Under the pieces are notes generated by a model. That model was given only the letters and a program-made list of their open reading frames with translations. It made no database searches and had not been told where the DNA came from. 64,000 nucleotides of DNA, taken from Candidatus Nomurabacteria bacterium (lineage in GTDB: Bacteria > Patescibacteriota > Minisyncoccia > Phycocordibacterales > SBAW01). The stretch covers positions 223,900 to 287,899 of the forward strand of contig CALREW010000001.1 in the NCBI GenBank assembly GCA_943356415.1, written 5' to 3'. Numbering within the stretch: the first letter of the stretch is position 1; every line of letters starts with the position of its first letter. A program made the position numbers and the translations under genes. Shown here piece by piece: positions 16,077 through 41,935 of the stretch.

Positions 16077-16107
16077 TACCCCGTGAGATAGGCTATCTCA
16101 TGGGGTA
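16077..16107 (-). promoter_or_regulatory. inverted repeat TACCCCGTGAGATA-ggc-TATCTCATGGGGTA overlapping the cPGI promoter
   Basis: 14-bp arms with one mismatch, 12 nt upstream of the cPGI ATG. On the sense strand the proximal arm runs into TATAAT. Confidence 0.5.
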
Positions 16108-16263
16108 TACGCCATCTACGCGCACGACGGGCATCTGCGCTCGCTCGGCATTGACATATACAAAAGGGTGTAGTACTTTGCCTCTTGCCTACGGGGCATT
16201 TTTTATGACCGTACGTGCTTGGGGAAAGACCCCAAGCTGCACACCACACTGCGAGGAAGCAAC

Positions 16264-16668
16264 GTGACCAATCAGACCCCCGGCACCGCCGGTTCGAAGA
16301 TCGCCGTCATCATCGCCAACATCAACGGCATCAAGGTTCCCACGCACAACAACAAGTCGGGCGCCCGCAAGGCCCTGCTGAGCGCCATCGGCGGCGACAA
16401 TGCCAAGCTGCTCGAGACCTCCACCAAGGTGGAGCTCGGCGAGGTCAAGACCGCCATCGGCGGCCTGCTCAGCAAGATGTACAACACGCCGGCGGCGATC
16501 GTGCGCTCCGGCATCGCCGAGGAGCCCGCGCTCTCGAACTTCCGGAAGTTCGCGATGCTGAAGGACCTCGACTTCGATCTGACCGACGAGCTCGGCTGGA
16601 TCTGGCGGGCGGCCGAGACGCCGCGCAGCGACCGCCTCGGCGACGAGCGCGCCGGCGCTCCCCGCTGA
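16264..16668 (+). CDS. hypothetical protein (134 aa, G+C-rich)
   Basis: GTG with GAGGAAG 6 nt upstream; the alternative TTG at 16219 is in AT-rich DNA. No family recognised. Confidence 0.4.
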   Translation: MTNQTPGTAGSKIAVIIANINGIKVPTHNNKSGARKALLSAIGGDNAKLLETSTKVELGEVKTAIGGLLSKMYNTPAAIVRSGIAEEPALSNFRKFAMLKDLDFDLTDELGWIWRAAETPRSDRLGDERAGAPR

Positions 16669-16749
16669 CCTGCGTCTTCGCCTCAGTGCAAGACGGGAGG
16701 GCCCTCTTCGGAGGGCCCTTTTCAGTTAAAGTGCGCTACACTTTTACCT

Positions 16750-17469
16750 ATGACACTTACCCTTATTACACTCGCAACCGTTCTCTCTACCCTCTTCGGA
16801 GGACTCTTTGCACTTAAGTTTCGCGACAAACTACACCTTATATTAGGTTTTAGCGCAGGCGCTGTTATCGGTGTCGCTTTTTTTGATCTCCTCCCTGAGG
16901 CGCTCGAACTCTCGGCAAGCTCCTATGACACATCAGTAGTAACCGGCATTGTTGCATTGGGTTTTCTTTTCTATATGGTGCTCGACCGCATTGTCACACT
17001 TCATGCGCACGACCATGACGAAGACGGTCACTCACACCGCGGCACCCTCGGCGCAGGTTCGTTCGCACTCCACAGCTTTCTTGACGGCATCGCCATCGGT
17101 CTCGCCTTCCAAGTATCAGCTGCTGTTGGTGTTGTCGTTGCCGTAGCGGTGTTGGTGCACGATTTTTCAGACGGCATTAACACCGTGAGCGCCATATTGC
17201 GAAGCGGCGGCACAAAAGCGCGCGCATTTGGTTGGCTCATTGCCGGTGCCATGGCTCCCGTCCTCGGCGTCATTGCAACCCGTTTCTTTATGCTCAACAC
17301 AGGCACTCTCGGACTGGTACTCGCAAGCTTCTGTGGATTCTTTCTCTATATAGGAGCGTCCGACCTTCTCCCAGAGAGCCACCACCAGCATCCAACATGG
17401 CTAACAAGTGGCATGACCCTCCTTGGCGTAGGGGCACTCTACGTAGCCATCACGCTTACTGGCATATAA
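16750..17469 (+). CDS. ZIP-family metal transporter
   Basis: HDFSDGI..., HHQH, a His-rich loop (HAHDHDEDGHSH) and 8 TM helices. Confidence 0.75.
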   Translation: MTLTLITLATVLSTLFGGLFALKFRDKLHLILGFSAGAVIGVAFFDLLPEALELSASSYDTSVVTGIVALGFLFYMVLDRIVTLHAHDHDEDGHSHRGTLGAGSFALHSFLDGIAIGLAFQVSAAVGVVVAVAVLVHDFSDGINTVSAILRSGGTKARAFGWLIAGAMAPVLGVIATRFFMLNTGTLGLVLASFCGFFLYIGASDLLPESHHQHPTWLTSGMTLLGVGALYVAITLTGI

Positions 17470-17536
17470 AACTTGCACGTTTTTCAAGCGGTGTTTTGAT
17501 AAAGGAAGCAGTATCACGTAGCCGGGGGAACATATT

Positions 17537-17797
17537 ATGTCGCTTCGCCTGCAGCTCAGGGACTACCGTCTCACGACGGCGGAAATCCTGTACTTCATGC
17601 TCGACCACCGTCACCTCCTGCAGACGTACATCTGGCAGGAACTCGACATCGCGCCTCGATTCCCTGTTCTGACGAAATTCCTGGATTTCTGGCAGAACAA
17701 TCTCGATGGCAAGCTCTTCGAGGTGAAGGTCGCAAGCGCCGGGCTCATCCAGCCCGCCGAATTCAAGTATGCGGAGATGCTCCGCACGCTCCACTGA
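17537..17797 (+). CDS. Usg-family protein
   Basis: YRLTTAEILYFMLDH..LLQTYIWQ..D.AP.FP.L..FL.FW...L.G matches the Usg family (PF06233) as recalled from memory. G+C-rich. Confidence 0.5.
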   Translation: MSLRLQLRDYRLTTAEILYFMLDHRHLLQTYIWQELDIAPRFPVLTKFLDFWQNNLDGKLFEVKVASAGLIQPAEFKYAEMLRTLH

Positions 17798-17842
17798 CCA
17801 CTTCCACGCGCCCCCGCAAACTGCTGCGGGGGCGAGGCGCTT

Positions 17843-19060
17843 TTAGGACTGCATTTTCTTCATAACGATAAAAAGGGTCGCCCAAGAACAAACAATAAGG
17901 GTCGAGCCAATAAGAAGCGGCGCTTGTATGCCGAGCACACTTGAACCGACCCCAGCGATAAGCGGCGCGAGTCCTTGCGAGAGCGCTAAGAGCGAGCCGT
18001 TTATGCCGAGCGCTGCTCCCTGCTTTTGTGGAGATACTCCTTTACTCACCAGCGCCGTCATATTTGCCATCGTGAGGCCGTTGCCGATAGCAACAAGCGG
18101 CAACACCATATACATCAAAGCGAGCGTCGGGATAAACGGATAGAGCGCGAGGCCAGAGGCAACCATCAACATCGAGACGCGCAATATTTGCTTCTCATGA
18201 AAACGTCGCGTGAGTAGGCGCAAAATGACCAACTGCGTAAAGACAATAAAAATGCCGGAGGTGGCAAAAAATGTTCCGACTCCGGCTTCAGAGAGGTGGA
18301 ACTTTGCAACAACGAGCACTCCTATAAATGAGGTAAAGAACGAAAAGCCTGCAAGAAAAAGAAAGCTCGTGAGGTATACCAAGCGCGCGTCAACATCGGT
18401 GAGTGCCGCACGGATATTGTGTATGCCTTTGAGCCATGTAAATGCGTGCGCTTCCCTTCTGTTGTGATGCGTTTCTGGCAAAAAAAGCGAAACGGAAATG
18501 ACGTTAAAAATGCCGAGAATACCCGCGACGTAAAATGGAGAAGCCGCGACGCCGGTAAGTGCCGATATCCATCCACCAAGAAGCGGTCCGAGAATAAAAC
18601 CGATCCCAAAAGCTGCACCAATAAGACCAAAATTCTTTGCTCGATCTTTCGGGTCAGTAACATCCGCAATGGTCGCCTGCGCGATGGCAAAGTTTCCACC
18701 AGCAAGCCCTGCAACCATGCGGCTGATAAATATAAGGGCAAGCGAACCTATCGTTATTGAAAAGGCAAACAACAAGTTTGAAAGCGCTAATACGGCAACA
18801 CCTACGGTGAGAAGTTTTTTGCGTCCATACACATCGGAAAGCTCACCAAGTATCGGCGCCGCGATAAATTGCATAAACCCAAAGACCGAAACAATGAGTC
18901 CCGCAAGCAAAAGTTGCATGCTCGTCGAATACCCCTGGAGTAAAAATGCAGGAGACGACGGTTCAGTAAAGAGAACAGGGATGAGAGGAAAAATCATCCC
19001 AAACCCGATCATGTCGATAAGGAGTGTGCCGAAAAGTATTGGTATTGCTCGTTTTGCCAT
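17843..19060 (-). CDS. MFS transporter (drug:H+ antiporter-like)
   Basis: 12 TM helices; the G.LSD..GRK motif between TM2 and TM3. Confidence 0.75.
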
Positions 19061-19138
19061 TCGTGCAGTTTAGCAGAAACGTTCGCGGGCCGGCCTCTCG
19101 TGGAGGCCGGCCCGTTTCGAACATGGTTGGTCCGTGGG

Positions 19139-20131
19139 CTACATGCCCATGAACTCGCGTTGGAATGTGGCGAGTGGCATCTGCGTGAGCCGCTCGAAGA
19201 TGGTGTGGTAGAGGCCCGTGGTCTGCGCGAGCACGTCCTTGGGCACGTACTGCTCGCGTACCCATGCGTAGTCGGCGTTCACCTCAGGCTTCCTGCGCTG
19301 GATGCCGAGCGTGCGCCCCCAGGTGCGGACGAACTCCTTGTCGTGGGACTTCGGTGTCCGGCCCTCACGCAGTGCGAGGTTCCAGTCGGTCTCGTCCCAG
19401 AAGCGGCTCGAGTCCGGCGTCAGATATTCATCGCCGAGAACAAGACGACGATCCTTGTCATAGCCGAACTCGAACTTCGTGTCGGCGATGATGACCTGGC
19501 GAAGCGCAGCGTGTATCCGGCCGACCTTGTAGATCTCCCATGCGAGATCACCGAGCTCGCCGCCGTACTTCTCGTCGACCGACTGCGCCGTGATGTGCTC
19601 GTCGTGACCCACCGTGACCTTGGTCGTCGGTGTGAAGAGCGGATTGTCGAACTGCGACCCATCCACCAGACCAGGAGGAAGCGAATGGCCGCACAACAGG
19701 TGCTTCGGCGCCGTTTCCTTGTAGGCGGTGAGTCCCGAGCCCGTGAGATAACCCCGGATGATGCACTCGACCGGGATCATCTCGAGCTTGCGGACGACGA
19801 CCGCGCGTGCGTGAAGGTCGCCCTTGTTGAGCTGGGCCTTCGGGAGATACTTGTCGATCTCAGCGCCTGCGGCGACGAAATCGGTCAGCACACCGTTGGG
19901 GTTCAGGAGAGCCTTGTCCCAGAAGACCTTGAGCGCCGTCAGGATTTCGCCCTTGTCGCGCACAAAATCCCCGAGCACGAAGTCGAAGATCGAGATGCGG
20001 TCGCTCGCGACAACCAGCATGAGGTCGTCGTGTCCCGGCAGTTCGTAGCTGTCGCGGACCTTACCACGATTCAACAGCTTGAGGCCGGGAACCTTCGGAC
20101 CGAACGTTGTCATGTCCACCATGAACTTCCC
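19139..20131 (-). CDS. purC: SAICAR synthetase, long form
   Basis: GKVRDSY, DRIS.FD, PVECI.RGY, KFEFG and LGDE.LTPDSSRFW. Start uncertain (20113, 20131 or 20215). G+C-rich. Confidence 0.8.
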   Translation of the reverse strand, partial: GKFMVDMTTFGPKVPGLKLLNRGKVRDSYELPGHDDLMLVVASDRISIFDFVLGDFVRDKGEILTALKVFWDKALLNPNGVLTDFVAAGAEIDKYLPKAQLNKGDLHARAVVVRKLEMIPVECIIRGYLTGSGLTAYKETAPKHLLCGHSLPPGLVDGSQFDNPLFTPTTKVTVGHDEHITAQSVDEKYGGELGDLAWEIYKVGRIHAALRQVIIADTKFEFGYDKDRRLVLGDEYLTPDSSRFWDETDWNLALREGRTPKSHDKEFVRTWGRTLGIQRRKPEVNADYAWVREQYVPKDVLAQTTGLYHTIFERLTQMPLATFQREFMGM

Positions 20132-20272
20132 CATTACACAGTATTGATGCTGCACACCCTGCAGCTGGTACATACAACCCACTGGTGAGCCTAAACAACC
20201 AGTGCCAAATTGCAAACGAAAACGCCGGCCCCCGAATGCAGAGGGCCGGCGTCGTATTTCAGGCGGCGAGGT

Positions 20273-21691
20273 CTAGACCTCGCCGCGGGCGATCGCGGGG
20301 GCGATGCCGATGTAATTGAGCGGCGTGATGCGCATGATTTCCGCCTTCACGCCGTCGTTAACGTCGAGCGTGGCCACGAAGGACCGGAGGTCGTCGAGGC
20401 TCACCGCCTTCCCACGCGCCACATCCTTGAGGATGTTGTAGGCACCGCCGACGCCTTCGCGCCGGAGGATGACCTGGATCGCCTCGGTGATGACCTCGGG
20501 GTGTTCCCAGAGCGCCTTGGCCATGGCCTCAGCATTCGGGGACGACTTACCGAGACCACGCATGACCGCCTTGTAGGCGATCAGGCTCCAGCCGAACGCG
20601 ATGCCGAAGTTGCGCATCACAGTGGAGTCCGAGAGATCGCGCTGGAGGCGCGACTTGGTGAGCTTGCGGGCGAAGAGTTCAAACAGCGCGTTCGCGAGCT
20701 CGAGGTTGCCTTCCCCATTCTCCCAGTCGATCGGGTTGACCTTGTGGGGCATGGCAGACGATCCCGACTCACTCGCCACAGCGCGCTGCGTGATCCAGCC
20801 GTCGCTGATGTAGCGCCACGTATCCTGCGCCAGATCTTCGACGATGTTGTTGATGCGGATCATCACCTGGAACAGCTCGGCATAGCTGTCGTGCGGTTCG
20901 ATCTGCGTGGTGTAGTGGTTTGCCACGATAACCGGATCGCTCGACGTGAAGCGGCTGAGCGTCGCGATGAAGCTCGATGCAAACTTCGGCCAGTCCACGT
21001 TCGGAAACGCAACGAACTCTGCGTTGTGGTTGCCAGTGGCACCGGAGAACTTGGCGTCTATGGTAACCCGGTACAGCTTGTTGAGCTCCCGTTCGAGGCG
21101 TTCCTTGAACACGCGCATTTCCTTGCCGAACGTCGTTGGCGACGCCGACTGACCGTGCGTGCGTGCGAGCATCGGAAGCTCCGCATGCTCGACCGAGAGT
21201 TTCTCGAGCGTGTCGTTTAGCTCGAAGAGCTGCGGCAGAATGACCTTCGAGATGGCATCGCACAGCATGAGCGCGTACGCGCAGCTGTTGATGTCCTCGG
21301 AGGTACGGCCGAAGTGTAGCCACGGCAACAGGTCCGCCATCGAGGTCTGCCGCAGCTTCATCTGAAGCCAGAGCTCGACGGACTGCACGTCGTGGTTTGT
21401 GGGGCCGAGCTTCATCTCGCCGTCCACATAGCCTTTGCGTTCGATTTGCTGAATGACGATGGCGTCGTCGAGCGAGAAATCGGCCACGAGCTTGTCGAGG
21501 AATTCCGCCTCGCTTTCGGTGAGCGGACGCACCGGCACCCCGGGGAAATCCGCGAGATGCTCGATGAACGCGACCTTGACGGTCACGCGATACCGCACGA
21601 GCGCGCCTTCGCTCATGCGCTGCGCTAGAGCTGCGACCGCCTTTGCATAGCGCCCGTCAACCGACGAGAGCCTCTCCAGTGGATGTGCCAT
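20273..21691 (-). CDS. purB: adenylosuccinate lyase
   Basis: SPVDGRY N-terminus, HFG.TSEDIN and THGQ.A.PTT.GKE signature; 472 aa. G+C-rich, with its own terminator. Confidence 0.85.
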   Translation of the reverse strand: MAHPLERLSSVDGRYAKAVAALAQRMSEGALVRYRVTVKVAFIEHLADFPGVPVRPLTESEAEFLDKLVADFSLDDAIVIQQIERKGYVDGEMKLGPTNHDVQSVELWLQMKLRQTSMADLLPWLHFGRTSEDINSCAYALMLCDAISKVILPQLFELNDTLEKLSVEHAELPMLARTHGQSASPTTFGKEMRVFKERLERELNKLYRVTIDAKFSGATGNHNAEFVAFPNVDWPKFASSFIATLSRFTSSDPVIVANHYTTQIEPHDSYAELFQVMIRINNIVEDLAQDTWRYISDGWITQRAVASESGSSAMPHKVNPIDWENGEGNLELANALFELFARKLTKSRLQRDLSDSTVMRNFGIAFGWSLIAYKAVMRGLGKSSPNAEAMAKALWEHPEVITEAIQVILRREGVGGAYNILKDVARGKAVSLDDLRSFVATLDVNDGVKAEIMRITPLNYIGIAPAIARGEV

Positions 21692-21944
21692 CTCTTAACC
21701 CTCTTCCTTCTTCAAAAAACGTTGTATCCCTTGCTCCATAAACGCGGAGCAACCAAACGGACTCTACTAGAGTCCAACGAACAAGTCTAGACAAACCTTT
21801 AGTTTAATTTCATATTGTCCTTATGCGGCATATATACCGCGGTATGGATACGGGCTGTACGCCTTCGATCGTCAAGATCGAGGCGCTTGCCTATGTCTAT
21901 AGCCGTGGTGTTTTGCAAAGCTAATCTCCTACGCACAGGAAGCT

Positions 21945-21990
21945 CTCGAAACCCCTCGGCTGGATGCGAAGCCGAGGGGTTTTCGTTTCC
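21945..21990 (+). terminator. hairpin plus T-tract inside the purB/GNAT divergent leader
   Basis: aaacccctcggc tggatgcga agccgaggggtttt cgtttcc. Confidence 0.4.
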
Positions 21991-22026
21991 AGCATGACTG
22001 ATCCTTAACAAGAGAAGGCCAAACCG

Positions 22027-22641
22027 ATGAGCAAGCGTATCAACCGCGTGGTTTTCAAAGACCACCCGAAGTCGAAAGTATTTCTCTCGCCTATCGAGAT
22101 GGGCGACGTCGATCGCTACTACGCGTGGACCAACGACCACGACGTAACTCGCTTCCTGATGATCCGCTTCCCCACCACACGCAAGCAGGAAGAGACCTGG
22201 TGTGCGGGGTCAGCGGCCAGTGCCCAACTGGAGAACATCGTGTTGGCGATTATCGAGAAGAAAGGGGGCACACACATCGGAAGCATCGGGTTGCATCGCA
22301 TCAGTTGGGGCAACCGTTCGGCAACAACGGGTGCGATGATCGGCGACAAACGCTTCTGGGGTGCAGGCTACGGCAGCCACGCCAAAGTGCTCCTGTTGAA
22401 GTACGCCTTCGACGAACTCGGGCTGCACTCCATTGAGTCCCGGGTAGCCGCCTTCAATGGCCGGAGCGCTGCCTACAACAAGAAGTGCGGCTACCTCGAA
22501 GTTGGTCGCATGCCGGAGCGGACATTCCGCGACGGAAAATTCCACGACGAAATCGTCATGGAGACACGGCCCACATTGTTCCGTCCTATCTGGAAGAGTT
22601 TCGAGGCCGGCACGTTCGGACCCTCGAAGCGCAAGAAATAG
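22027..22641 (+). CDS. GNAT N-acetyltransferase (RimJ/RimL-like)
   Basis: Acetyl-CoA-binding fold (IGSIGLHRI...R/Q..G.G.G..A). G+C-rich. Confidence 0.65.
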   Translation: MSKRINRVVFKDHPKSKVFLSPIEMGDVDRYYAWTNDHDVTRFLMIRFPTTRKQEETWCAGSAASAQLENIVLAIIEKKGGTHIGSIGLHRISWGNRSATTGAMIGDKRFWGAGYGSHAKVLLLKYAFDELGLHSIESRVAAFNGRSAAYNKKCGYLEVGRMPERTFRDGKFHDEIVMETRPTLFRPIWKSFEAGTFGPSKRKK

Positions 22642-22762
22642 CTTCGTACGAAAATGATGGACGCCCCCGCGACTGCGGGGGCGTTTTCATTTGAACTAAC
22701 CCTACTAAAAAGTCTGAGGGCCCGGCGGTGAAGCCGGGCCCTCGAACCTCTCGAGTCTAAGA

Positions 22763-23839
22763 CTAGCTGTGCAGCGGGACTGGCACCAGCTCGTTGTGGA
22801 GAACCTCCGGCGATCGGCCGCCACGGCCCGGGCGGATCATGGTGAGGCGGACCGCAAGCAGCTGAGGGCCCTCCGCCCTCCACGCTTCAACGATCCTCAA
22901 CGCCCGCTTGATGGCGTTGTCGATCGCTTCCTTCTCCGTCATGATCTTGCTCGTCCACTCGCCTTCGGAGCCAGGCCAGTTGAACGTGTACGTCGCGCCG
23001 TTGATCGAATCAGCGCGGAGCGACGTCATCTTCCACGGATGAGCGCCGATCTCGCAGAGCCGCCCTTCAAGTTCACGAGCAGGCTGCGCGAACGTCCGCA
23101 TAGCCCACTCGGTGTATTTCGAAACCAACTCCCATTCCAGCACGCGCTCACCTTCGATACCAACGGCGTTGACGATGCGTGCGACGCCAGCGAGGGCATC
23201 GTGCCGCACCGCCAAGTCTTTGGCGAACGCGACTGTTGCCGTATCGCAGACGTCGTTGTGAACATCTGCCTTTGAGAGCTCAACCATCGCGAGCATCATC
23301 CGAGCGCGGCGTGATGGATCCGCACGGAAGTTATTGTCGCGGATGAGCCGCGAGATGAGCTCGTGATGGACCACTTGGTCGGCGCACTTAGCCGCTTCCA
23401 CCAGAAAACGGCAGAGCTCGTCGGCTTCGGCCTCGTCTTCACTCTCCGCCCACCGACGCACGACGAGCGTGAGCAGCTTTTCGCGTGTTTTCAAATGGGG
23501 CGACTTGTTGTCCGAAGGCAGGAGCGTGTAGATCTCCATGATCTCCTTGAGCTGCTCCACCCTAACGGCGACCATCATCTGTTCCGCCGGCTGACGCGCC
23601 TTACGACCAGCTTCGCGGTTCTTCTCGTAGATCGCAGCCAGCAAGTAGCCAACGTGCCCCGAAATGATCCCGTCGACTTTCTTGTCCTCCGCGTCAGAGA
23701 CGTCTTGCGCGGCCAGCCCGAGGACGATCTCGCGGAGCCGCACGACACGCTCCTCGTGCGAGAGCTCCTTGAGCGCCAGCCACGTTACGCCATCAAGTGG
23801 GTTGAAGATTTCGTCCAACCGCTTCAGGTGGTCCTTCAT
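22763..23839 (-). CDS. hypothetical protein (358 aa, G+C-rich)
   Basis: ATG 7 nt after GGAGA. Predicted mostly helical N-terminal part and a mixed C-terminal part. No family recognised. Confidence 0.45.
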   Translation of the reverse strand: MKDHLKRLDEIFNPLDGVTWLALKELSHEERVVRLREIVLGLAAQDVSDAEDKKVDGIISGHVGYLLAAIYEKNREAGRKARQPAEQMMVAVRVEQLKEIMEIYTLLPSDNKSPHLKTREKLLTLVVRRWAESEDEAEADELCRFLVEAAKCADQVVHHELISRLIRDNNFRADPSRRARMMLAMVELSKADVHNDVCDTATVAFAKDLAVRHDALAGVARIVNAVGIEGERVLEWELVSKYTEWAMRTFAQPARELEGRLCEIGAHPWKMTSLRADSINGATYTFNWPGSEGEWTSKIMTEKEAIDNAIKRALRIVEAWRAEGPQLLAVRLTMIRPGRGGRSPEVLHNELVPVPLHS

Positions 23840-24057
23840 TTCACGTCTCCTCTGTGACCGTAGCCACGGTAGCCTTATCCCCGTAGGGCAAGGTGGCAGT
23901 GGGGCATATCCCTTCTGCCAACGAAAGCACAAGCGCTTCCGGCAACACTGTACAACGCTAGTTTAACTTCGTCAAAACATATTTTTATCCTGACCATTCC
24001 ATACCTCTCTGGTATAGTCGACTTCGGAAAGGCGCTCATATAGAGCGGACGGGAAAC

Positions 24058-25155: not shown

Positions 25156-25224
25156 GGCTCCGACCTATCGCAACGAAAGGCCGCCCGTCTGGGCGGCCTT
25201 TTCGCGTGGTATAGACTAATTCGT

Positions 25225-26289: not shown

Positions 26290-26333
26290 GAGTAACGATC
26301 ACCAGTAGGGTCCTGGCGCGTTAGACTATATAT

Positions 26334-33125: not shown

Positions 33126-33128
33126 TGT

Positions 33129-33656
33129 ATGAATAAGGAAGACCGACAAAATCTCACCGCCCTCATTGAGGCAAACGGAGGTGCCGATTGGTGGGACCCG
33201 CAGGAGTTTCAGGCTTCTGTTCGCGCAAAACTCCCCACACAGCTCCAGATACTTTCTGTTCCTCCGTCTCCTGCATCAAACTACAATTGTTTCGTATACG
33301 CCCTCGGCCTCGAAGGTCGTAAGGCATTCCTTGGAGGCAATAACCCAGTCCAAAAGGAATTTATTCAACATCTCCTAAATAAAGGTGTACTCGGGCTAGT
33401 TGAAAAGCCTACAGAAGGTGATCTTATTTTTTATAAAGATGAAGGTGGCACAATAACCCACGGCGGGATTGTAAGCGCCGGCGGAAAAATATCTTCAAAA
33501 TGGATGTGGGGCGCACTCTTCTCCCACGAAACCTGGGATGTTCCTTCTTCTTTCGGAGATATTGTTTTCTATACAAACAGACCTCTACCTGAAGTGCTAG
33601 AAAAAGAATACGAGGATTACAAAAACAGTGGAGCCATCATTAATCCAATTCAATAA
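33129..33656 (+). CDS. papain-fold Cys/His hydrolase-like protein (NlpC/P60 or CHAP-type), tentative
   Basis: Y-N-C-F-V-Y-A-L-G, then GDLIFY...ITHGGIV, follows the Cys...His order of NlpC/P60. Family not certain. Confidence 0.35.
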   Translation: MNKEDRQNLTALIEANGGADWWDPQEFQASVRAKLPTQLQILSVPPSPASNYNCFVYALGLEGRKAFLGGNNPVQKEFIQHLLNKGVLGLVEKPTEGDLIFYKDEGGTITHGGIVSAGGKISSKWMWGALFSHETWDVPSSFGDIVFYTNRPLPEVLEKEYEDYKNSGAIINPIQ

Positions 33657-34099
33657 TGGCTGAACATTTTAAAATTATGCCAGCGGTGTTCTTAGTTCTT
33701 ATCAAGGACGGTACCGTTCTACTTGCTCGGCGAGCCAATACTGGCCATCAAGATGGAAACTACGGCCTCCCTGCTGGGCACCTCGAGCAAGGAGAGTCAG
33801 TGCGTGAAGGCATTGTTCGTGAAGCGCGGGAGGAGGTAGCCGTTATTCTCGAGACTGAGGATATGAGCGTCGTACACGTCATGCAGCGCAACAAAGATGT
33901 TCCAGGTAAGGAATACGTAGACTTCTATCTCACTGCCAATCACTGGGCCGGTGAACCTAAAAATAACGAGCCCGAAAAGTGCGACGACGTCGCTTGGTTT
34001 CCACTCGACAACTTGCCTCCAAACACTATTCCCTACGTGCGCCAAGCCATAGACTGCATCCGCCGCAATCAACACTTCTCCGAATTCAACTTCAACTAA
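33656..34099 (+). CDS. Nudix hydrolase
   Basis: Nudix box GHLEQGESVREGIVREAREEVAV. Start overlaps the previous stop (TAATGG). Confidence 0.7.
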   Translation: MAEHFKIMPAVFLVLIKDGTVLLARRANTGHQDGNYGLPAGHLEQGESVREGIVREAREEVAVILETEDMSVVHVMQRNKDVPGKEYVDFYLTANHWAGEPKNNEPEKCDDVAWFPLDNLPPNTIPYVRQAIDCIRRNQHFSEFNFN

Positions 34100-34177
34100 C
34101 AAAGCTAGCGTATTTAAAAAAACACACTCCTTGTCGCTATAGAGACAAGGAGTGTGTTTTTGCTTTTACCTAATGAA

Positions 34178-34636
34178 TTAGGCCGCTTTGGGCAAATCTC
34201 TCTCTATCATATGGTCACCCAAGATGCTCTCTATCTCATGCATGCGCTCATTCGCATCAAACGAGTCCTTCGTCTCACTAGAAAGCAACCGATCGAATGT
34301 GGGGGCAACTGCATCAAGTGCTCCTTTAAGCTTTTCTGCCGCTTTTGGGTCTGAAAGAGTCGCAAGATGCGCCTTTAAAGCACTTTGGTACGCAGCCGCC
34401 TCTTCCTTTATAAAAGGCATTTGCTCTTCTCCACCTTCAAGATTACCGAATGCAACTTTAAAGTAATTGGCTGAGGTTGCGACATTCTGTGGAATGATTC
34501 TAATCGCCAACTCGAAACCTTTTTTAGCACGCACCTGATCTCGACTAAGTCCTGAGTCATTCGCCTCTATGCGAGGAGGTCTATTCATGTTCATAGCAAT
34601 AACTATATGCCGGCCTGCTTCGTTTGCAATAGGCAC
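34178..34636 (-). CDS. hypothetical protein (152 aa)
   Basis: Intact ORF upstream of truB; no motif. Confidence 0.35.
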   Translation of the reverse strand: MPIANEAGRHIVIAMNMNRPPRIEANDSGLSRDQVRAKKGFELAIRIIPQNVATSANYFKVAFGNLEGGEEQMPFIKEEAAAYQSALKAHLATLSDPKAAEKLKGALDAVAPTFDRLLSSETKDSFDANERMHEIESILGDHMIERDLPKAA

Positions 34637-34644
34637 ATTCGCCT

Positions 34645-35412
34645 TTATTTCAAGGCTTTTTCGGCAGTGTGTTCCCCTACTTTAGTACGCAAAATATGGA
34701 GCGCGAGCGCTGGTACACCCAAAGATTCACCGAGGCGATTTGCGATACTTCTCATATAGGAGCCACTCGAGCACGAGACGCGTACCGAAACGCATGGGTA
34801 TTCGCGCGTACCGTCGGCAAATAGTTTCTGCTTCCATAAGCGCATCACTTCTTCTTGTCTAAAATCTCCCTGCACCCGATCGATAGAATCCTCGATATAG
34901 GCGAGTAGTTGTGGTTCTTTAATTTTGTATCCTTTCTCAAGATCAATCTGGTGGATGGTCACCGTGCGCTGGGGCAGCATCATTGCTTCAATCGCGCCAC
35001 TGCGCGCCCACGACCACAGCGACTTTCCTTCTACCGTCTTGCTTGAAAACGGCGGGTACTCTTGGCTCAGCGTTCCTCGAAATTGGTTTAAGCCCATTCG
35101 TACTTCTTTGAGGCTAAGTCCCTCTGGTTCAGCCGCTTGCCGCACTTTACCGAGGATGTCGTAGGAGTCGGTCGAAAATCCGAAAAGAATATCGAGTACG
35201 TACTCTTTTGAAAGTTCCAGGTATTCGTCGCGTCTTTTGTTTTCAGGACCCACCAAACACAGCAATACCCCCTCGGCCATAGGGTCGAGACGACCGGCGT
35301 ACGAGAGCACTTCGGTCGCATATTGGGGCTTCTGGACACGCAGGCGCTCCAAGCGCTCCCGGGGTGTTTCCCCGAGCTGTTTGTATAGATTGACTACGCC
35401 CGCGCTTTTCAT
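34645..35412 (-). CDS. truB: tRNA pseudouridine(55) synthase
   Basis: GRLDPMAEGVLL catalytic Asp motif and TruB fold; 255 aa. Confidence 0.8.
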   Translation of the reverse strand: MKSAGVVNLYKQLGETPRERLERLRVQKPQYATEVLSYAGRLDPMAEGVLLCLVGPENKRRDEYLELSKEYVLDILFGFSTDSYDILGKVRQAAEPEGLSLKEVRMGLNQFRGTLSQEYPPFSSKTVEGKSLWSWARSGAIEAMMLPQRTVTIHQIDLEKGYKIKEPQLLAYIEDSIDRVQGDFRQEEVMRLWKQKLFADGTREYPCVSVRVSCSSGSYMRSIANRLGESLGVPALALHILRTKVGEHTAEKALK

Positions 35413-35438
35413 ACGTTTCTGCTACAATAGCTCACAAC

Positions 35439-36689
35439 ATGGCAGATAGCCAAAAAAAGCTTTCTACTGAGGCCTATAAGGGTGTTCGCGACTTCTACCC
35501 CGAGGAACAAGCGGTTCAGAACTTCATGTTCGACACGCTCAAACGCTTTGTTGAAAAAGTGGGGTACGTTGAGTATGGCGCCTCCATTCTTGAGCCAGCC
35601 GAGCTCTACCGCAGCAAGGGGGCAGAAAATGCCGAGATGGTAAACGAGCAGACGTACACCTTCACCGATCGAGGTGACCGCGAAGTAACGCTGCGCCCTG
35701 AGATGACCCCAACCGTTGCCCGCATGGTGGCGGCAAGGCGTCGCGACTTGGGCTTCCCGCTTCGTCTCTACTCGATCCCAAATGTCTTCCGCTATGAGCG
35801 CCCGCAAAAAGGACGCCTCCGCGAACACTGGCAACTTAACGTCGACATTTTCGGTACTAAATCCTCATATGCAGATGCGGAGATACTCGGTGTTGCATAC
35901 GGCATCATGCGAACCTTTGGTGCTAAAGAGAGCGATTTTGTTATCAAAGTAGGTTCACGCTCATACCTTGATGCATTTGCAAAGGAGCGTGGTTTAACTG
36001 ACGAGCAGTACAAAACTCTGCGTCGTCTTCTTGATGCAAAGGACAAGATGACCGCTCAAGAATTTGAAGCGGGCTTAAGTGAGCTCGAGATAGAACCAGG
36101 CATGCTTTCTGCAGACAATCCTCCTGCAGATATCGAACAGATGCTGAAAGAGTTTGCCGCTGCAAATATCAACAATATTGTGTACGACCCATCTATTGTT
36201 CGCGGCTTCGACTACTACACTGGCATGGTGTTTGAAGTCTTTAATACCAACCCAGAAAATAGACGTGCCCTCTTCGGTGGTGGCCGCTACGACAACCTCA
36301 CCGCGCTCTTTGACGACGAGCCGTGCCCTGGCGTTGGTTTTGGTATGGGCGACGTTACGCTGCGGGATTTCCTTGCTTCTCGCAATCTTATCCCGGCATA
36401 TGTGCCACCCACACACGTCTACATTGCGATTACTTCACCAGAACTTGCCGGCAAGGCGCAGACGTTTGCCGGAGACTTACGCGAGGCCGGTGTTAACGTT
36501 GCGATCGACTTTGGCGACAGAAAACTTGCAGACCAGATACGCATGGCAAGCAAGCACAAAATCCGTCACCTTATCGTGCTCGGTGAAGATGAAATCACCT
36601 CGGGCAATATCAAAATAAAGGATATGGAGTCTGGCGATGAGAGTCTGCTCTCTAAAGCAGATGTTGCTGCGTTCTTGCTTAAGGCGTAA
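35439..36689 (+). CDS. hisS: histidine--tRNA ligase
   Basis: GVRDFYPEE, class II motifs 1-3 and a C-terminal anticodon-binding domain. Confidence 0.85.
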   Translation: MADSQKKLSTEAYKGVRDFYPEEQAVQNFMFDTLKRFVEKVGYVEYGASILEPAELYRSKGAENAEMVNEQTYTFTDRGDREVTLRPEMTPTVARMVAARRRDLGFPLRLYSIPNVFRYERPQKGRLREHWQLNVDIFGTKSSYADAEILGVAYGIMRTFGAKESDFVIKVGSRSYLDAFAKERGLTDEQYKTLRRLLDAKDKMTAQEFEAGLSELEIEPGMLSADNPPADIEQMLKEFAAANINNIVYDPSIVRGFDYYTGMVFEVFNTNPENRRALFGGGRYDNLTALFDDEPCPGVGFGMGDVTLRDFLASRNLIPAYVPPTHVYIAITSPELAGKAQTFAGDLREAGVNVAIDFGDRKLADQIRMASKHKIRHLIVLGEDEITSGNIKIKDMESGDESLLSKADVAAFLLKA

Positions 36690-36700
36690 CAATCTTCCGT

Positions 36701-37282
36701 ATGGCCGCGCCGCGTAAAATTACTTTTGACATTGAGACGTCTAATGAATTTATAGGCGGAGATTTCAACCCACTAAAACTCGATTTAGCACTTGTTGGTA
36801 TCCACGATAGCGCGAATGACGAATACTCAAGCTACACCCAGGAAGAACTGCCGAAGCTCTGGCCTATTATCGAAAAGGCCGACATCCTGATCGGCTACAA
36901 CTCAGACCACTTCGATATTCCCTTGCTCGGCAAATACTATCCGGGTGACCTCACCAAAATAAAGAGTATCGACCTGCTCAAAGAAGTGCGCGCCGTGCTT
37001 GGACGCCGTCTTAAACTCGATTCTCTTGCCGAGGCAACCTTGGGACGGAAAAAGATAGGCGACGGCCTTCAATCCATCCGCTGGTGGAAGGAGGGCAAAG
37101 TAGAGGAAGTTCGTAAGTATTGCATCGAAGACGTCCGTATCACTAAAGATATCTACGACTACGCGCGTGCGAACAAACGCCTTAAATATATGGATTACGA
37201 AGGTGTGCGTGAGATAAAAATAGACTCATCAAAATGGGAGAAGGGGGCGGATCATGCACTCACTCATACGTTGCCATTTTAA
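36701..37282 (+). CDS. DEDD-type 3'-5' exonuclease-like protein
   Basis: FDIETS (Exo I), YNSDHFDIPLL (Exo II), YCIEDVRITKDIYDY (Exo III). Confidence 0.55.
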   Translation: MAAPRKITFDIETSNEFIGGDFNPLKLDLALVGIHDSANDEYSSYTQEELPKLWPIIEKADILIGYNSDHFDIPLLGKYYPGDLTKIKSIDLLKEVRAVLGRRLKLDSLAEATLGRKKIGDGLQSIRWWKEGKVEEVRKYCIEDVRITKDIYDYARANKRLKYMDYEGVREIKIDSSKWEKGADHALTHTLPF

Positions 37283-37303
37283 CGTTACGCTACGACTGAG
37301 TAG

Positions 37304-38086
37304 TTAGAGGCTGGCGGCAAGAATAATAAGAGCGGCCAGTCCGAGCCGATACCAGACAAACGGCAATAAAGAATGCGTACGCAAAAACTTGAGCATAAAG
37401 TGGATGGCCGTAAAGCCTGAAATAAACGCCGCAAGCGCGGCAATAGCAATCGGAGTTGCATCCGCACCCAGCGTCCCACTTTGGTTGAGTTCGAGTAGAC
37501 CCTTCAGTCCCGCGCCAAAAATAAGCGGTGCAGAAAGTAAGAACGCAAAACGCGTAGCTGCCTCACGGGTAAGTCCCACTAAAAGACCTCCGACAATGGA
37601 CATACCGGAGCGACTCATGCCGGGAATAAGTGCGAGCGCTTGGAAGAGTCCTACAAGAAATCCTTTTTTCGCAGAAAGTTCAGCCCTCCCATTTGCATAT
37701 CGCTCTCCAATGATAAAAAGTGCTGAGCCAGCGATAAGCCCAGCTGCTACCCAAAGCGAACTGCGAAATGTGGTGGCAATCGCTCCTTCGGCAAAAAAAC
37801 CAACCGCTGCAGCGGGTATCGTGCCGAGGATAAGTGCAAAAAGAAGCGTTCGTTCCTCACGTTCACCGCGCAAGGTTCCGACTACGATGTCGACAATATC
37901 TCGAAAGAAATAAACGACCACCGCCAGCACCGCGGCCATATTAAGGACGGCGTCTACGGCCAACCCTGAGGAAATCTGTAGGCCTAGGAGGTCTCGAACG
38001 ACTATGAGGTGCCCAGTTGAGGATACCGGCAAAAACTCAGTAAGGCCTTCTACAAGGCCCAATATAAGGCCGTCTATTAGGGTCAT
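37304..38086 (-). CDS. uppP: undecaprenyl-diphosphatase
   Basis: LGLVEGLTEFLPVSSTGHL signature and 8 TM helices. Confidence 0.8.
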   Translation of the reverse strand: MTLIDGLILGLVEGLTEFLPVSSTGHLIVVRDLLGLQISSGLAVDAVLNMAAVLAVVVYFFRDIVDIVVGTLRGEREERTLLFALILGTIPAAAVGFFAEGAIATTFRSSLWVAAGLIAGSALFIIGERYANGRAELSAKKGFLVGLFQALALIPGMSRSGMSIVGGLLVGLTREAATRFAFLLSAPLIFGAGLKGLLELNQSGTLGADATPIAIAALAAFISGFTAIHFMLKFLRTHSLLPFVWYRLGLAALIILAASL

Positions 38087-38136
38087 TTGTGCTAGAATCG
38101 TACCATACCCGTATAGGGAGATAAGCCTTAAAACAC

Positions 38137-38856
38137 ATGACTAGAGACCAACTACTCGTCCCCATCGCTATCATCGTCGCCGGCGTCATCATTGCGGTCG
38201 CCGTCTACTTTATTAATCGCAAAGCAGTAACTGTTCCCCCAGGCCAAGTAAACAACACGGCGGTACGTGCGTACGACCCGTCACAAGACCATATCTTCGG
38301 TAACCCAAGCGCCCCAATAAAAATCATCGAATACTCGGACATGGAGTGCCCGCACTGCAAAACCTACGCCGTAACGCTTAAGGCGCTTGTCGAAGAGTAC
38401 GGACCGACTGGGGAAATCGCTTGGGTGTATCGCCACTTCCCTATTGTTGAACTTCACGCAAAAGCGCCAAAGGAATCTGAAGCTGCAGAATGCGCCGCAG
38501 ACGTAGGCGGTGGAGACGCGGCATTCTTCAAATTTATCGATCGCGTGTATGAAGTAACTCCATCAAACAACGGACTCGACTTGGCAGCACTTCCTGATAT
38601 TGCAGCAGCAGTTGGAATCGACAAAGAAAAATTCAAAGCCTGCCTTGATAGCAATAAATACAAAGACAAGGTTGCTTCACAGGTAAAAGAAGCGCTCGAC
38701 CTTGGCATCCGCGGCACCCCGCACAGCTTTATCTCGGTTGCAGGCAACTTCCTTCCTGTCGAAGGAGCACAGTCGGTAAGCGCTATGCGCTCGGCTCTAA
38801 ACGCCATCATCGCCGAACTCCACAATACGACTGGCACGTCTACGCCCACTCAATAA
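38137..38856 (+). CDS. DsbA-like thiol:disulfide oxidoreductase
   Basis: TM anchor plus a CPHC thioredoxin-fold active site. Confidence 0.7.
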   Translation: MTRDQLLVPIAIIVAGVIIAVAVYFINRKAVTVPPGQVNNTAVRAYDPSQDHIFGNPSAPIKIIEYSDMECPHCKTYAVTLKALVEEYGPTGEIAWVYRHFPIVELHAKAPKESEAAECAADVGGGDAAFFKFIDRVYEVTPSNNGLDLAALPDIAAAVGIDKEKFKACLDSNKYKDKVASQVKEALDLGIRGTPHSFISVAGNFLPVEGAQSVSAMRSALNAIIAELHNTTGTSTPTQ

Positions 38857-38868
38857 GAGGAGGCTGTC

Positions 38869-39723
38869 CTACTCGTCCGCTCCTTCACTCTCGTCTACAA
38901 GACCGAGGCGATAAATATCGAACGAATTTTCCCCTTCAAACATGTCAGAGGGGTTAGGAAGAAATACGCGCGTGCGTGATATTTCTGTCGTTGCATCGTT
39001 AATGAGTCGGTGGAAGACAGCAAACTCATGCCGGCACTGCGTAAAATCAAGCGCGTAGCGACGGAGCTGTTTTTTACCGTCTGCATTCCGAGACTTCTTG
39101 CACTCGTACACGATAAAGCGTCGCACCGGTCTGCCAAGGAGCGCTTTGACCGTGTAGTAATTAAAAAGTGCTTGTATGACAAAGAGCGTCTTCGCTTCTT
39201 TAAGGCTGCTGTAGCTGTCGACAAATTTATGATCAACAATATCGACCTCGCCAGGGTAGCCTTTTGATTCGACGACCAAGTCTGAAACTGCCTTAAGGGG
39301 CAACGCAAGTCCTTCTACTTCCGTTGACGCCTTTACTTCAACAGCAAGCACTTTGTGTTTCGGTGCCTTTTCAAGATAAAAACCAATGACTTGGGTATAT
39401 TCGCGCTCCATATGAGCACGCTTTTTCTTTTTTTCTGCACGAGTTTTATGGCGACCAAAGTTGATATCAAAGTCGGCTATCGACTGCAGATATGAGAGCC
39501 CTGCGGCTATAGCCACCTCCTTGTCTGCACCTTCATAAAAGTGCTGTAGCGCCAGGTGTCCCGCACGACCCACGTAAGACGCTGGGCCAGATGGGGTGTC
39601 ATATACGTGCTCTACGTAGCGTTTGTACCAGGCCAGAGGGTTCCTGAGGTACGCCATAAGAGAGGAGTGGCTCCAATGGCCTATTGGGGCCTTTCTATAA
39701 GGCTTTCTAACCTCATCCTCCAT
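38869..39723 (-). CDS. PD-(D/E)XK nuclease superfamily protein (Cas4/RecB-nuclease-like)
   Basis: GRAGHLALQ, DIVDHK, and Q-x-x-x-Y (IQALFNYY) spacing typical of RecB-family nuclease domains. Confidence 0.45.
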   Translation of the reverse strand: MEDEVRKPYRKAPIGHWSHSSLMAYLRNPLAWYKRYVEHVYDTPSGPASYVGRAGHLALQHFYEGADKEVAIAAGLSYLQSIADFDINFGRHKTRAEKKKKRAHMEREYTQVIGFYLEKAPKHKVLAVEVKASTEVEGLALPLKAVSDLVVESKGYPGEVDIVDHKFVDSYSSLKEAKTLFVIQALFNYYTVKALLGRPVRRFIVYECKKSRNADGKKQLRRYALDFTQCRHEFAVFHRLINDATTEISRTRVFLPNPSDMFEGENSFDIYRLGLVDESEGADE

Positions 39724-39828
39724 ACCCTTGCAGTATAGCCTTATTTGACAATATATATTTTAGTATGTATAGTTAGCTCGAATGTTAGGTGCGGCGTCCT
39801 GCCTCACCCCTTCAAAGAGAGACGATCG

Positions 39829-40521
39829 ATGCCGAAAAGAATGACCATCCTGGTCATGGTTGCCGTGGCGCTGATTGCTGCGCTGGCAACCTTCCTTCTG
39901 TTGGGACCCCGAACTGATGTGTTCGCCCAGAACACTACAGGCAAGGCCCAGGCGACCACTCCGTTCGTGCGGCACATCGCCAATCCGCCGACCTTCACGT
40001 ATGCCGGGAAGGTGAAAGTCCCCGCCCAGGCGAAGTTTCACCTCAACGCGGACTTCTGGGCCAAGCGATTCTCCCGCGGGTTCAAAATGGCCGTGTCGAT
40101 CGAAGATAACCTCCGGGTCAGCAATAACCGGATGGAATACTTCTACGATTTGGTGGAACTGCCCACACCCGCCGCCACGCTGAAGGTTAGCTACGTCAGC
40201 GGCCGCACGCACGACGAAGACCTCAGAGGTCAGTTCAAGGTCAAGCCCGTCACGCTGGGACAGTTCTTCTATCTGCACACCCTGCAGCCCAATGGCGAGA
40301 AGGGGCTGCTGCGGACCCAGCACGACAAGGACTGCCGATTCTTCGAGGACATCGCGTGCGTGAACATCGTTCACTACACTCTCGCCGACGGGACGGTCGC
40401 CATGTTCCGCTCGCTTTGGATGCGCGGCGAGGGTGGCTGGAGCTTCACCTTCGGCGGCCTGTGCGACCAGTATCGCAACAGTGGATGCGACCGGCATGGT
40501 TCTGCCGTGGTCCACCCCTGA
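39829..40521 (+). CDS. secreted hypothetical protein (230 aa, G+C-rich)
   Basis: ATG with an upstream purine-rich SD; N-terminal signal peptide; four Cys in the C-terminal region. The ORF opens at 39745 in AT-rich DNA. No family recognised. Confidence 0.45.
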   Translation: MPKRMTILVMVAVALIAALATFLLLGPRTDVFAQNTTGKAQATTPFVRHIANPPTFTYAGKVKVPAQAKFHLNADFWAKRFSRGFKMAVSIEDNLRVSNNRMEYFYDLVELPTPAATLKVSYVSGRTHDEDLRGQFKVKPVTLGQFFYLHTLQPNGEKGLLRTQHDKDCRFFEDIACVNIVHYTLADGTVAMFRSLWMRGEGGWSFTFGGLCDQYRNSGCDRHGSAVVHP

Positions 40522-40584
40522 CACCCCTTCGCTGACTTCGGTCAGCGCGCACCGCCGCCTTCTTTCGAAGGCGGCGGGTTTCGT

Positions 40585-41858
40585 TTAATAACTTCTTAGA
40601 CGCTTAGCTTTATCGTGCGTGCGTATTCGTTCAAGTGCCTTTGCTTCAATCTGACGTATACGCTCGCGAGTCACACCAAACTCCTTCCCCACTTCTTCAA
40701 GAGTGTGATACACGCCATTGATAAGGCCGTGTCTCATTTCTAATATCTTCCTCTCTTTGGGCGACAACTCATCCATAATCTCACCAAGTTGGTCCGCAAG
40801 AATGCGGCGCGCTACTTCCTGGTCAGGAGAGAGAATTTTGTCATCCTTAATGAAGTCCCCGAGTACTGACTTACCTTCATCTTCATCACCCACTGGCGAC
40901 TCAAGCGAAACAGTATCCTGGTCAATTTTTTCTATTTGATAGATCTTGTCTACGTCGACACCCATTTCAAGTGCAATCTCTTCCGGCATCGGATCGCGAC
41001 CGAGATCTTGGCTCAAACGACGAACAATCTGCTTATATTTTGCGATGGTCTCAACCATGTGCACTGGGATGCGGATGGTGCGGGATTGGTCAGCAAGCGC
41101 ACGCGTAATAGCCTGACGTATCCACCAGGTCGCATAAGTGCTGAACTTATACCCTTTGGTGTAGTCAAACTTTTCTACCGCCTTAAAGAGACCGAGATTT
41201 CCTTCTTGGATTAAGTCGAGAAGTGTGAGGTCCGGGCTTCGGCCGACATACTTTTTTGCAATCGAAACCACCAAGCGGAGGTTAGCGCGGGCAAGAAGAT
41301 TTTTTGCTTCTTCATCACCTTCAGTGATGCGCTTAGCTAAGTCGCGTTCTTCTTGTGCATTGAGGAGTGGGTAGCGACCTATCTCACGGAGATACATTTG
41401 GATCGAGTCATAGGAAGAGTCACCGCGTGAGTAAGTGTTTGGTTCTTCTTCAGCAACATCGAGCATTCCGCCGCCTTCAAGGACGTCGATGGCTGCTGTT
41501 GAAAGCTTCTCGTACAACTCTTCAAGAAACGCGACGTCGTCTTCAATCGTAGGAAATTGCTTCAATATTTCGTCATAGGTAACAAAACCGCGTTCGCGGC
41601 CGTGTGCGAGGAGCGCTTGAGCTTTCTTCTCTTTTTCAGCAGCCTTCTTATCAACCTTAACTGGGACGACTTTTACTTTCGCCGCAGCCTTTACAACTTT
41701 CTTTTTTGGCAAAACTTTTGCACGACGAGATGCCGCCAATGACGAGAGGCGTTTACGCTGCGAAGCACCCGCGCGGGCTCCTTTTGCCTTGGCGCGCGGC
41801 TTTTGCATCTTTTTTGCCCCGCTTGCACGGGTGGATTTCTTTTTTGCCTTCTTAGCCA
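40585..41858 (-). CDS. rpoD: RNA polymerase sigma-70 factor with Lys-rich N-terminal extension
   Basis: Regions 1.2 to 4.2 present (DLIQEGN..., helix-turn-helix 4.2). The ORF opens with GTG at 41907, but the ATG at 41858 (MAKKAKKK) is the likely start. Confidence 0.85.
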
Positions 41859-41874
41859 TACTTGAGTGTGAAGT

Positions 41875-41935
41875 ATACCCCGTGAGATAAGCGATTCCAA
41901 GAACCACTTTTTGCGAACTTTTTATCTCACGGGGT
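41875..41935 (-). promoter_or_regulatory. inverted repeat TACCCCGTGAGATA-N33-TATCTCACGGGGTA in the rpoD leader/promoter
   Basis: Exact 14-bp arms, the same as at 16077..16107. On the sense strand the proximal arm runs into TATACT, 13 nt before the ATG. Confidence 0.5.

Follow-up and report, generated by a model that had tools for sequence, protein, structure and literature searches.

Palindromes at the cPGI and rpoD promoters

Two minus-strand genes of a Candidatus Nomurabacteria genome, cPGI (cupin-type glucose-6-phosphate isomerase) and rpoD (primary sigma factor), are preceded by the same 14-bp inverted-repeat arms in a 64,000-nt stretch of contig CALREW010000001.1 (positions 223,900 to 287,899 of the forward strand; hereafter the window), and the question raised by this arrangement is what a shared palindrome is doing at two such promoters. 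A preliminary description of the window proposed a binding site for one regulator, a conserved promoter module of the lineage or an RNA stem at the 5′ end. The comparisons presented here point elsewhere: with a probability of roughly 0.68, both palindromes are gene-less, non-autonomous copies, resembling miniature inverted-repeat transposable elements (MITEs), of a mobile palindromic element that is associated with a GIY-YIG nuclease gene.

A search of the window recovered all four arms. Copy 1 spans 31 bp (16077–16107), in which the arm TACCCCGTGAGATA at 16077–16090 (plus strand, exact) is separated by the 3-nt spacer ggc (16091–16093) from the second arm, TATCTCATGGGGTA, at 16094–16107 (minus strand, one G to A mismatch), just as the preliminary description had it. 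Copy 2 spans 61 bp (41876–41936), with exact arms at 41876–41889 (plus strand) and 41923–41936 (minus strand) on either side of a 33-nt loop (41890–41922); here the spacer length and the exactness of the arms had been given correctly, but the interval, 41875–41935, was one base off. The statement that the window holds no other copy is borne out at 0–1 mismatches, and matches to TACCCCGTGAGATA with 2–3 mismatches all lie in coding sequence at chance level (7 observed, 3.1 expected). The chance expectation for one given 14-mer on both strands of 64 kb is ∼5e-4. The sub-motif CACGGGGTATA occurs four times in the window at ≤1 mismatch against 0.36 expected, and none of 100 shuffles reached four.

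Orthologous sites without the element

Relatives of both genes, which come from groundwater and sediment metagenomes, lack the arm at the corresponding position. Upstream of rpoD it is found at none of 80 loci encoding rpoD relatives (63–77% amino acid identity), where TATAGT or TATAAT lies 8–13 nt before the ATG without a palindrome. Upstream of cPGI it is absent from the orthologs in loci L238 (75%) and L239 (71%), where an unbroken TATACT lies 6–7 nt before the ATG that starts a conserved 13-aa N-terminal extension; this comparison of the window, L238 and L239 is a direct reading of the sequences and not an automatic alignment. As the cPGI orthologs have an unbroken TATACT-ATG arrangement, the ancestral promoter was already near-leaderless and the palindrome was added to it.

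At rpoD, empty and filled sites can be compared between close strains. Loci L240 and L241, whose dnaG is 98.0% identical to that of the window, carry an empty rpoD site, in which the dnaG–rpoD spacer is 55 nt long, CGA replaces window positions 41878–41942 (65 nt) and TATACT is present. The flanks of the empty and filled sites are identical over 68 nt and 39 nt, and the right junction is exact (GGGGTA|TACT, equivalently GGGG|TATACT). The filled allele recurs in L001, and the P0208 contig is also filled, as judged from the P0208 N-terminus, which is a translation through the arm. The presence/absence polymorphism with otherwise identical flanks that characterizes MITEs is therefore observed at rpoD, and in these comparisons orthologous sites lack the element, whose presence also varies within a species.

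Beside the hairpin polymorphism, the rpoD DNA itself is only 88% identical between the window (40570–41877) and L240 (1483–2792), compared with 98% in dnaG upstream and 96.7% in the downstream region, which suggests a recombination patch over rpoD.

Spread of the hairpin across genomes

One genome per GTDB species was scanned for the motif CCCCRTGAGATA-N{3,33}-TATCTCAYGGGG. At least 119 genome stretches matched, against ∼0.5 chance matches expected by our own estimate, and 125 instances (123 from the scan and the two window copies) were analysed among the matches listed. The hosts among these include the Candidate Phyla Radiation (CPR)/Patescibacteria (Kaiser-, Nomura-, Adler-, Zambryski-, Levy-, Doudna-, Peregrini- and Saccharibacteria), Planctomycetota (Phycisphaerae and Pirellulales), Acidobacteriota (Pyrinomonadaceae), Verrucomicrobiota, Bacteroidota, Ignavibacteriales, Chlorobiota, Nitrospirota, Omnitrophota, Elusimicrobiota, Dehalococcoidia and bins labelled Bifidobacterium. 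Multiple dispersed copies, a further trait of MITEs, are present in that several genomes have 4–7 matching contigs (up to 7 per metagenome-assembled genome, MAG), in addition to the two copies in the window. As far as these genomes tell, the element is clearly dispersed, patchy and spread across phyla.

All size classes from 3 to 33 nt are represented among the gaps between the arms (peaks at 6, 9, 11, 16–17, 26 and 32–33 nt), arm copies with an intermediate spacing of 52–74 nt exist as well, and the palindrome is often extended into the flanks. Most instances are intergenic, often 0–20 nt past a stop codon, with the neighbouring genes co-directional in 49 cases, convergent in 16 and divergent in 9. 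Outside the 14-nt arms, the flanks read TT|AA in 45 of the 125 instances and TA|TA in 11 others, which are CPR copies. CPR copies have G-TA at the end of the distal flank and TA-CT at the start of the proximal one, and the two combine to the GTATACT box that is unbroken in relatives. At least 12 CPR cases have the layout GGGG-TATACT/TATAAT-N6-7-ATG. The downstream genes elsewhere are unrelated (HisRS, OTCase, GH1, M16 peptidase, AI-2E transporter, type IV secretion system coupling protein, SLOG protein and others); the GH1 of the window is 58% identical to the GH1 of a Kaiserbacteria MAG (L120) that itself has a hairpin directly upstream. A Kaiserbacteria-like CPR bacterium is accordingly the probable source of the window. 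No recurrent neighbour protein family emerged among 432 adjacent open reading frames (ORFs) of ≥90 aa, the largest cluster having six members, a search that missed the GIY-YIG partner described below because that partner is ∼85 aa long and present at a minority of sites.

Two occurrences stand apart. In the viral database IMG/VR the motif is confined to one contig, IMGVR_UViG_3300044799_000709 (L121–L123; 43.8 kb, three hairpins), which is perhaps misclassified or else a prophage-like stretch from a host rich in hairpins; a phage origin of the element was considered and is unlikely, given this single contig. Locus L034 (MBAA01000200.1, labelled Promethearchaeota), a 4.7-kb contig assigned to an Asgard archaeal bin, has two hairpins and is either a mis-binned bacterial contig or the sole archaeal occurrence among the matches listed.

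A GIY-YIG gene between the same arms

Reading of the hairpin array in L083 revealed a 90-aa ORF that directly adjoins the array. GIY-YIG genes adjoin hairpins in L083, L094, L030, L082 and L105 (Verrucomicrobia, Pyrinomonadaceae, Peregrinibacteria and Patescibacteria), with ∼60% amino acid identity across phyla. These ORFs match the GIY-YIG catalytic domain (Pfam PF01541, E 1e-15 to 4e-17) and encode stand-alone proteins of 84–90 aa, the nearest solved structures being the UPF0213 members 1zg2 (B. halodurans BH0048, E 4e-8) and 1ywl (E. faecalis EF2693, E 5e-7). The subfamily comprises 1,657 clusters at E≤1e-5; 50%-identity representatives number 8,926 at E≤1e-3 and 1,470 at E≤1e-10. The catalytic residues are conserved: in the 120 best homologs the Y, Y-x-G, R, H and E motifs do not vary, and 78 of the 120 end exactly in Y-L-x-G (...RLKN-Y-L-T-G); the C-terminus count rests on these best 120, the 50%-identity representatives often being over-long ORF calls.

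The arm is itself coding sequence, as TAT CTC ACG GGG TRA encodes the terminal Y-L-T-G-stop of the GIY-YIG protein. In all seven independently retrieved homolog loci (L204–L237), CCCCRTGAGATA or a diverged variant lies 0–55 nt before the ATG, and in five of the seven the gene ends with TATCTCAYGGGG and a stop codon, AT-rich genomes included, where synonymous drift would be expected. L236 has a diverged YL codon pair and, a few codons further on, the arm, whereas L227 has diverged arms with short hairpins on both sides of the GIY-YIG gene. The inverted arm stands just upstream of the gene in 12/12 gene copies examined. Inverted repeats common to the hairpins and a gene-bearing element, as in MITEs, are thus found here, with arms diverged or displaced in L083, L227 and L236. 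On these sequence grounds, the full unit is a ∼300-bp cassette with the GIY-YIG ORF between inverted ends, and the short hairpins evidently share its arms; they also keep the polarity of the gene copies, TTCA...TAAA.

The ends of the cassette are best seen in L225 and L226, where it lies inside a YhcG/DUF1016 nuclease gene. Excising CACCCC...GGGGTA from L225 joins ...VAIEL|KLGDFKPEH... into one ORF, which matches YhcG_C over profile positions 3–156 of 157 (E 7e-48), the target reading CTT|AAA. Since excision restores YhcG exactly, the ends of the cassette are the 14-nt arms and its insertion, clean as judged from this rejoined frame, caused no target duplication. The target-site duplication that accompanies many MITEs is likewise not seen in L225, and the TA/TA flanks of the window copies are ambiguous in this respect.

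Several features of individual cassette and hairpin loci were recorded alongside. Tandem arrays of 3–7 hairpin units occur in L083 (150–370, 37-nt period) and L110 (2990–3290), with tight (TTTA) and wider (8–9 nt) spacers alternating. L227 (1130–1500) represents a variant subfamily with the arms CCCCATTAGATA gctttg CATCTAACGGGG, next to a type I restriction-modification methylase gene, and several cassettes stand beside restriction-modification or other nuclease genes (HsdM, YhcG and RhuM). In L204–L223, (GA)n/(CT)n microsatellites lie ∼60–330 nt downstream of two different GIY-YIG cassettes and vary in length between samples; they may be slippage-prone or phase-variable tracts.

Proposed insertion into -10 boxes

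At both window sites, the start-proximal arm abuts a -10 hexamer. The cPGI hexamer TATAAT occupies 16073–16078 (minus strand), its first two bases (16077–16078) being the terminal TA of the element, and the ATG at 16065 lies 7 nt downstream. The rpoD hexamer TATACT (41872–41877, minus strand) lies 12 nt before the ATG at 41859, overlaps the terminal TA of the element and is already present in the empty allele; removal of copy 1 leaves the cPGI promoter as gcgTA|TAAT, i.e. an intact TATAAT. The -10 hexamer has, on this reconstruction, clearly been regenerated at both sites. The preliminary description was right in placing the palindromes directly upstream of minus-strand cPGI and rpoD (gene identities confirmed by Pfam) and in noting the two hexamers, although their distances from the ATG are 7 and 12 nt and not 7–13 nt; the near-leaderless layout that it recognized is conserved in orthologs, as TATACT-N6/7-ATG at cPGI and as TATAGT/TATAAT 8–13 nt before the ATG at rpoD.

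A mobile element of this kind could work as follows. The GIY-YIG nuclease would act on hairpin or cruciform ends, perhaps in a structure-specific manner like Slx1 relatives, and insertion would split a short A/T palindrome at its midpoint (TT|AA for most lineages, TA|TA for CPR). In the source CPR genome, TA|TA sites would mostly be the native GTATAMT -10 boxes of near-leaderless genes, and as the element ends in ...GGGGTA, insertion would rebuild TA+TAAT or TA+TACT. In a lineage whose promoters have no conserved -35 element, the displacement of upstream DNA by 31–61 bp would probably be tolerated. The operator-like look of both copies is explained in this way, because an element seated TA|TA in -10 boxes rebuilds the hexamer with its terminal TA, and insertion would be tolerated because the promoters seem independent of a -35 element. 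Copy 2 has a -35-like TTGGAA in its 33-nt loop (41895–41900, minus strand; read from the sequence), 17 nt upstream of TATACT and matching TTGACA at 4/6 positions, and this is a possible element-borne -35. The short copies are probably cassettes that lost the ORF and moved in trans, the flanks suggest TTAA or TATA as the insertion target, and the GIY-YIG nuclease would be the mobilising enzyme.

Several observations weigh against such an origin of the window palindromes. The left-hand boundary at rpoD is a few bases off (AAGATC versus CGATA), so that either the event lacked precision or the empty allele bears the footprint of an excision or deletion. Within the 64-kb window there is no GIY-YIG ORF (best hidden Markov model E 0.5), and the loops of the two window copies contain no recognisable ORF remnant; a weak remnant signal in short-hairpin loops of the Planctomycetota type (QRR/QSR before the arm) is not relied on. 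The GIY-YIG fold is not known to serve as a transposase in prokaryotes, and the 84-aa protein has no obvious DNA-binding domain. The TT|AA target is suggested by one direct case together with flank statistics, and TT/AA could instead be part of a longer arm. A bolder version, to which we give clearly less than even odds and which is offered tentatively, is that the ∼300-bp cassette (14-nt ends and an 84-aa GIY-YIG ORF) would found a new class of autonomous transposons and be smaller than any other known in prokaryotes, with a bare nuclease as transposase and duplication-free insertion at TTAA/TATA, and that it would have given rise to the hairpins that colonise -10 boxes of near-leaderless genes in CPR.

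Comparison with known systems and alternative explanations

The hairpins resemble MITEs and their parent insertion sequences (IS) in being short and gene-less, with terminal inverted repeats that recur in a longer element with a gene, and in being dispersed, mostly intergenic and strain-polymorphic; MITEs can likewise supply or rebuild promoter elements, as do the Correia/NEMIS (Neisseria miniature insertion sequence) elements of Neisseria. They differ in that the window copies are only 31–61 bp long with no target-site duplication found, in that the partner is an 84-aa GIY-YIG nuclease instead of a DDE, HUH, serine or tyrosine transposase, and in that one inverted repeat of the element is the C-terminal coding sequence of the partner gene. 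Free-standing GIY-YIG homing endonuclease genes (Seg of T4, I-TevI-like) are similarly selfish, encode a GIY-YIG nuclease, spread horizontally and are inserted between or within host genes. However, the homing enzymes have ∼200–270 aa with a separate DNA-binding domain, whereas the cassette protein is a bare 84-aa catalytic domain; and they act at one cognate site with recombination via flanking homology, whereas the cassette has its own inverted-repeat ends and unrelated insertion loci. Thus, of the traits of homing endonucleases, the GIY-YIG domain is present, but the C-terminal DNA-binding domain and the single cognate site are not. The closest protein relatives are the UPF0213/COG2827 proteins (1zg2, 1ywl and E. 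coli YhbQ; relatives of the Slx1 catalytic domain), which match the cassette protein in size and in the GIY/YIG/R/H/E motifs, whereas the tail KYLKTAWGKRYIKxRLxxYLTG is specific to the cassette subfamily. To our knowledge, the function of UPF0213/COG2827 is uncharacterised, and we know of no report that ties the family to inverted repeats or mobility. A search of the full-text literature, with incomplete coverage, found nothing pertinent on the arm sequence, on GIY-YIG genes with inverted repeats, MITEs or hairpins, or on UPF0213/COG2827, and the GIY-YIG-associated hairpin element is apparently undescribed.

A perfect palindrome that lies over the promoter spacer and is common to two promoters invites the reading, put forward initially, of an operator through which one factor co-regulates cPGI and rpoD, or else of a conserved lineage promoter module. 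Both are very improbable and are largely refuted by the distribution of the sequence. It is absent from the orthologous promoters (0/80 rpoD loci, L238, L239 and the strain with 98% identical dnaG) and polymorphic within the species; the half-site spacing differs by 30 nt between the window copies (3 versus 33 nt) and ranges over 3–33 nt in the 125 instances; the neighbouring genes elsewhere form an unrelated set without coherent function; and the sequence is found in unrelated phyla and inside a coding gene. A module of the whole lineage also fits poorly with just two sites in the 64-kb window, with the occurrence in many phyla and with the role of the arms as ends of a GIY-YIG cassette. A heat-shock or SOS regulon for rpoD was also considered and is ruled out by the unrelated gene set. 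At first sight the element resembles the controlling inverted repeat of chaperone expression (CIRCE), the operator of HrcA, which is likewise perfect, located at promoters and alike in sequence across many phyla, but CIRCE has a fixed 9-nt spacer, orthologous chaperone promoters and a cognate repressor, whereas the present element has variable spacing, no orthologous conservation and unrelated neighbours. The remaining early suggestion, an RNA stem at the 5′ end, is unlikely for these two genes, since transcription is predicted to start downstream of the stem, although read-through transcripts from dnaG would contain it.

A different possibility is that the hairpin is useful to the host, as a 3′-end stabiliser of mRNA or a terminator, an insulator or a portable promoter module, that it spread and was retained for this reason and that GIY-YIG genes are parasites homing into it, with the hairpin as target site of the nuclease and not as its derivative. 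The hairpins are indeed very stable: as sense-strand RNA, copies 1 and 2 have folding energies of -20.4 (z -4.3) and -30.2 kcal/mol (z -5.9), respectively, far better than shuffled controls. Their frequent position within 20 nt past a stop codon, the excess of co-directional and convergent over divergent neighbours, the sharply preferred CPR geometry GGGG-TATACT-N6/7-ATG and the short hairpins that also flank gene copies (L082 and L227) would all fit a host function. Yet no U-run follows the stems of the window copies, whose 3′ flanks are UAUAAUUUC and UAUACUUCAC, and because a U-tract is missing after the stem, the hairpins fall outside the definition of an intrinsic (Rho-independent) terminator, their stability notwithstanding. 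At the gathering threshold, the window and 11 hairpin loci matched no Rfam family other than tRNA, and a comparison of G·U with A·C pairs at the variable R/Y position, expected to be asymmetric for an RNA stem, gave no consistent strand bias relative to genes, a result confounded by the search pattern. Against a host role, the hairpin is dispensable at both window loci (empty allele in a close strain, orthologs without hairpin), the Y-L-T-G C-terminus found throughout the family marks the arm as an old and integral part of the gene, and the flank asymmetry of gene copies (TTCA...TAAA) is kept by the short hairpins. We therefore regard a host-useful hairpin as an unlikely origin. It is improbable, too, that the palindrome is of the repetitive extragenic palindromic (REP)/REPIN type, moved by an unlinked transposase (a REP-associated tyrosine transposase, RAYT, an IS200/IS605-type Y1 enzyme or another), with the GIY-YIG gene as a frequent passenger of the loop. 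Such systems share with the element hairpin-forming palindromic ends and duplication-free insertion at a short specific sequence, and, like REP sequences, the hairpins are short extragenic palindromes with several copies per genome that at times cluster in tandem (L083 and L110). However, a GTAG or CGTC tag is missing from the arms, the surroundings of the copies show no recurrent HUH/Y1 gene, the ends of the element are true terminal inverted repeats, and the hairpin sequence is identical across phyla, whereas REP sequences are species-specific. A passenger role is also at odds with the finding that the arm is GIY-YIG coding sequence in essentially every gene copy examined.

If the palindromes are indeed offspring of a GIY-YIG-associated mobile element, an abundant uncharacterised family, the stand-alone UPF0213/COG2827 GIY-YIG nucleases, would gain a concrete biological context, and at least one large subfamily would be encoded by a minimal selfish element that has its own inverted-repeat ends, leaves MITE-like offspring and passes between distant phyla. 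A nuclease fold would join the few kinds of enzyme by which DNA is moved in prokaryotes, with a testable system of ∼300 bp, and mobile DNA would be seen to remodel core promoters of reduced CPR genomes, that of the primary sigma factor included. For annotation, a perfect palindrome fused to a -10 box can be an insertion scar and not an operator, and no regulon should be inferred from the ‘shared operator’ of cPGI and rpoD.

Host genes and neighbouring sequences

The cPGI gene (15508–16065, minus strand; Pfam PF06560, GPI/cupin, E 6e-24) is the first gene of a cPGI-GH1-EamA operon, and the order cPGI-GH1 is common to the window, L238 and L239. The rpoD gene (40585–41859, minus strand) encodes 424 aa from the ATG at 41859, with the Pfam sigma-70 regions r1.1, r1.2, r2, r3 and r4, and its homologs use the same start codon. 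Upstream of it lies the primase gene dnaG (41977–43680, minus strand; Pfam DnaG domains), and copy 2 is situated in the dnaG–rpoD spacer, 40 nt past the dnaG stop. An ORF of 2,284 aa (43751–50605, minus strand) lies directly upstream of dnaG.

The spacer between cPGI and the plus-strand genes (16108–16215) contains a block, AAAAATGCCCCGTAGGCA...TACTACA...ATATGTCAAT, that is conserved in the orthologous loci L238 and L239. Its plus strand reads TTGACA, a 17-nt spacer and TACTTT, followed by a short hairpin and a T-run, with no Rfam match at the gathering threshold, and the block may hold a divergent promoter and a small RNA or leader. Finally, a 39-nt direct repeat (16702–16740 and 16790–16828; 79% identity, 88 nt apart) is located near the start of a ZIP transporter ORF, and both of its copies begin with a CCCTCTTCGGAGGG hairpin.

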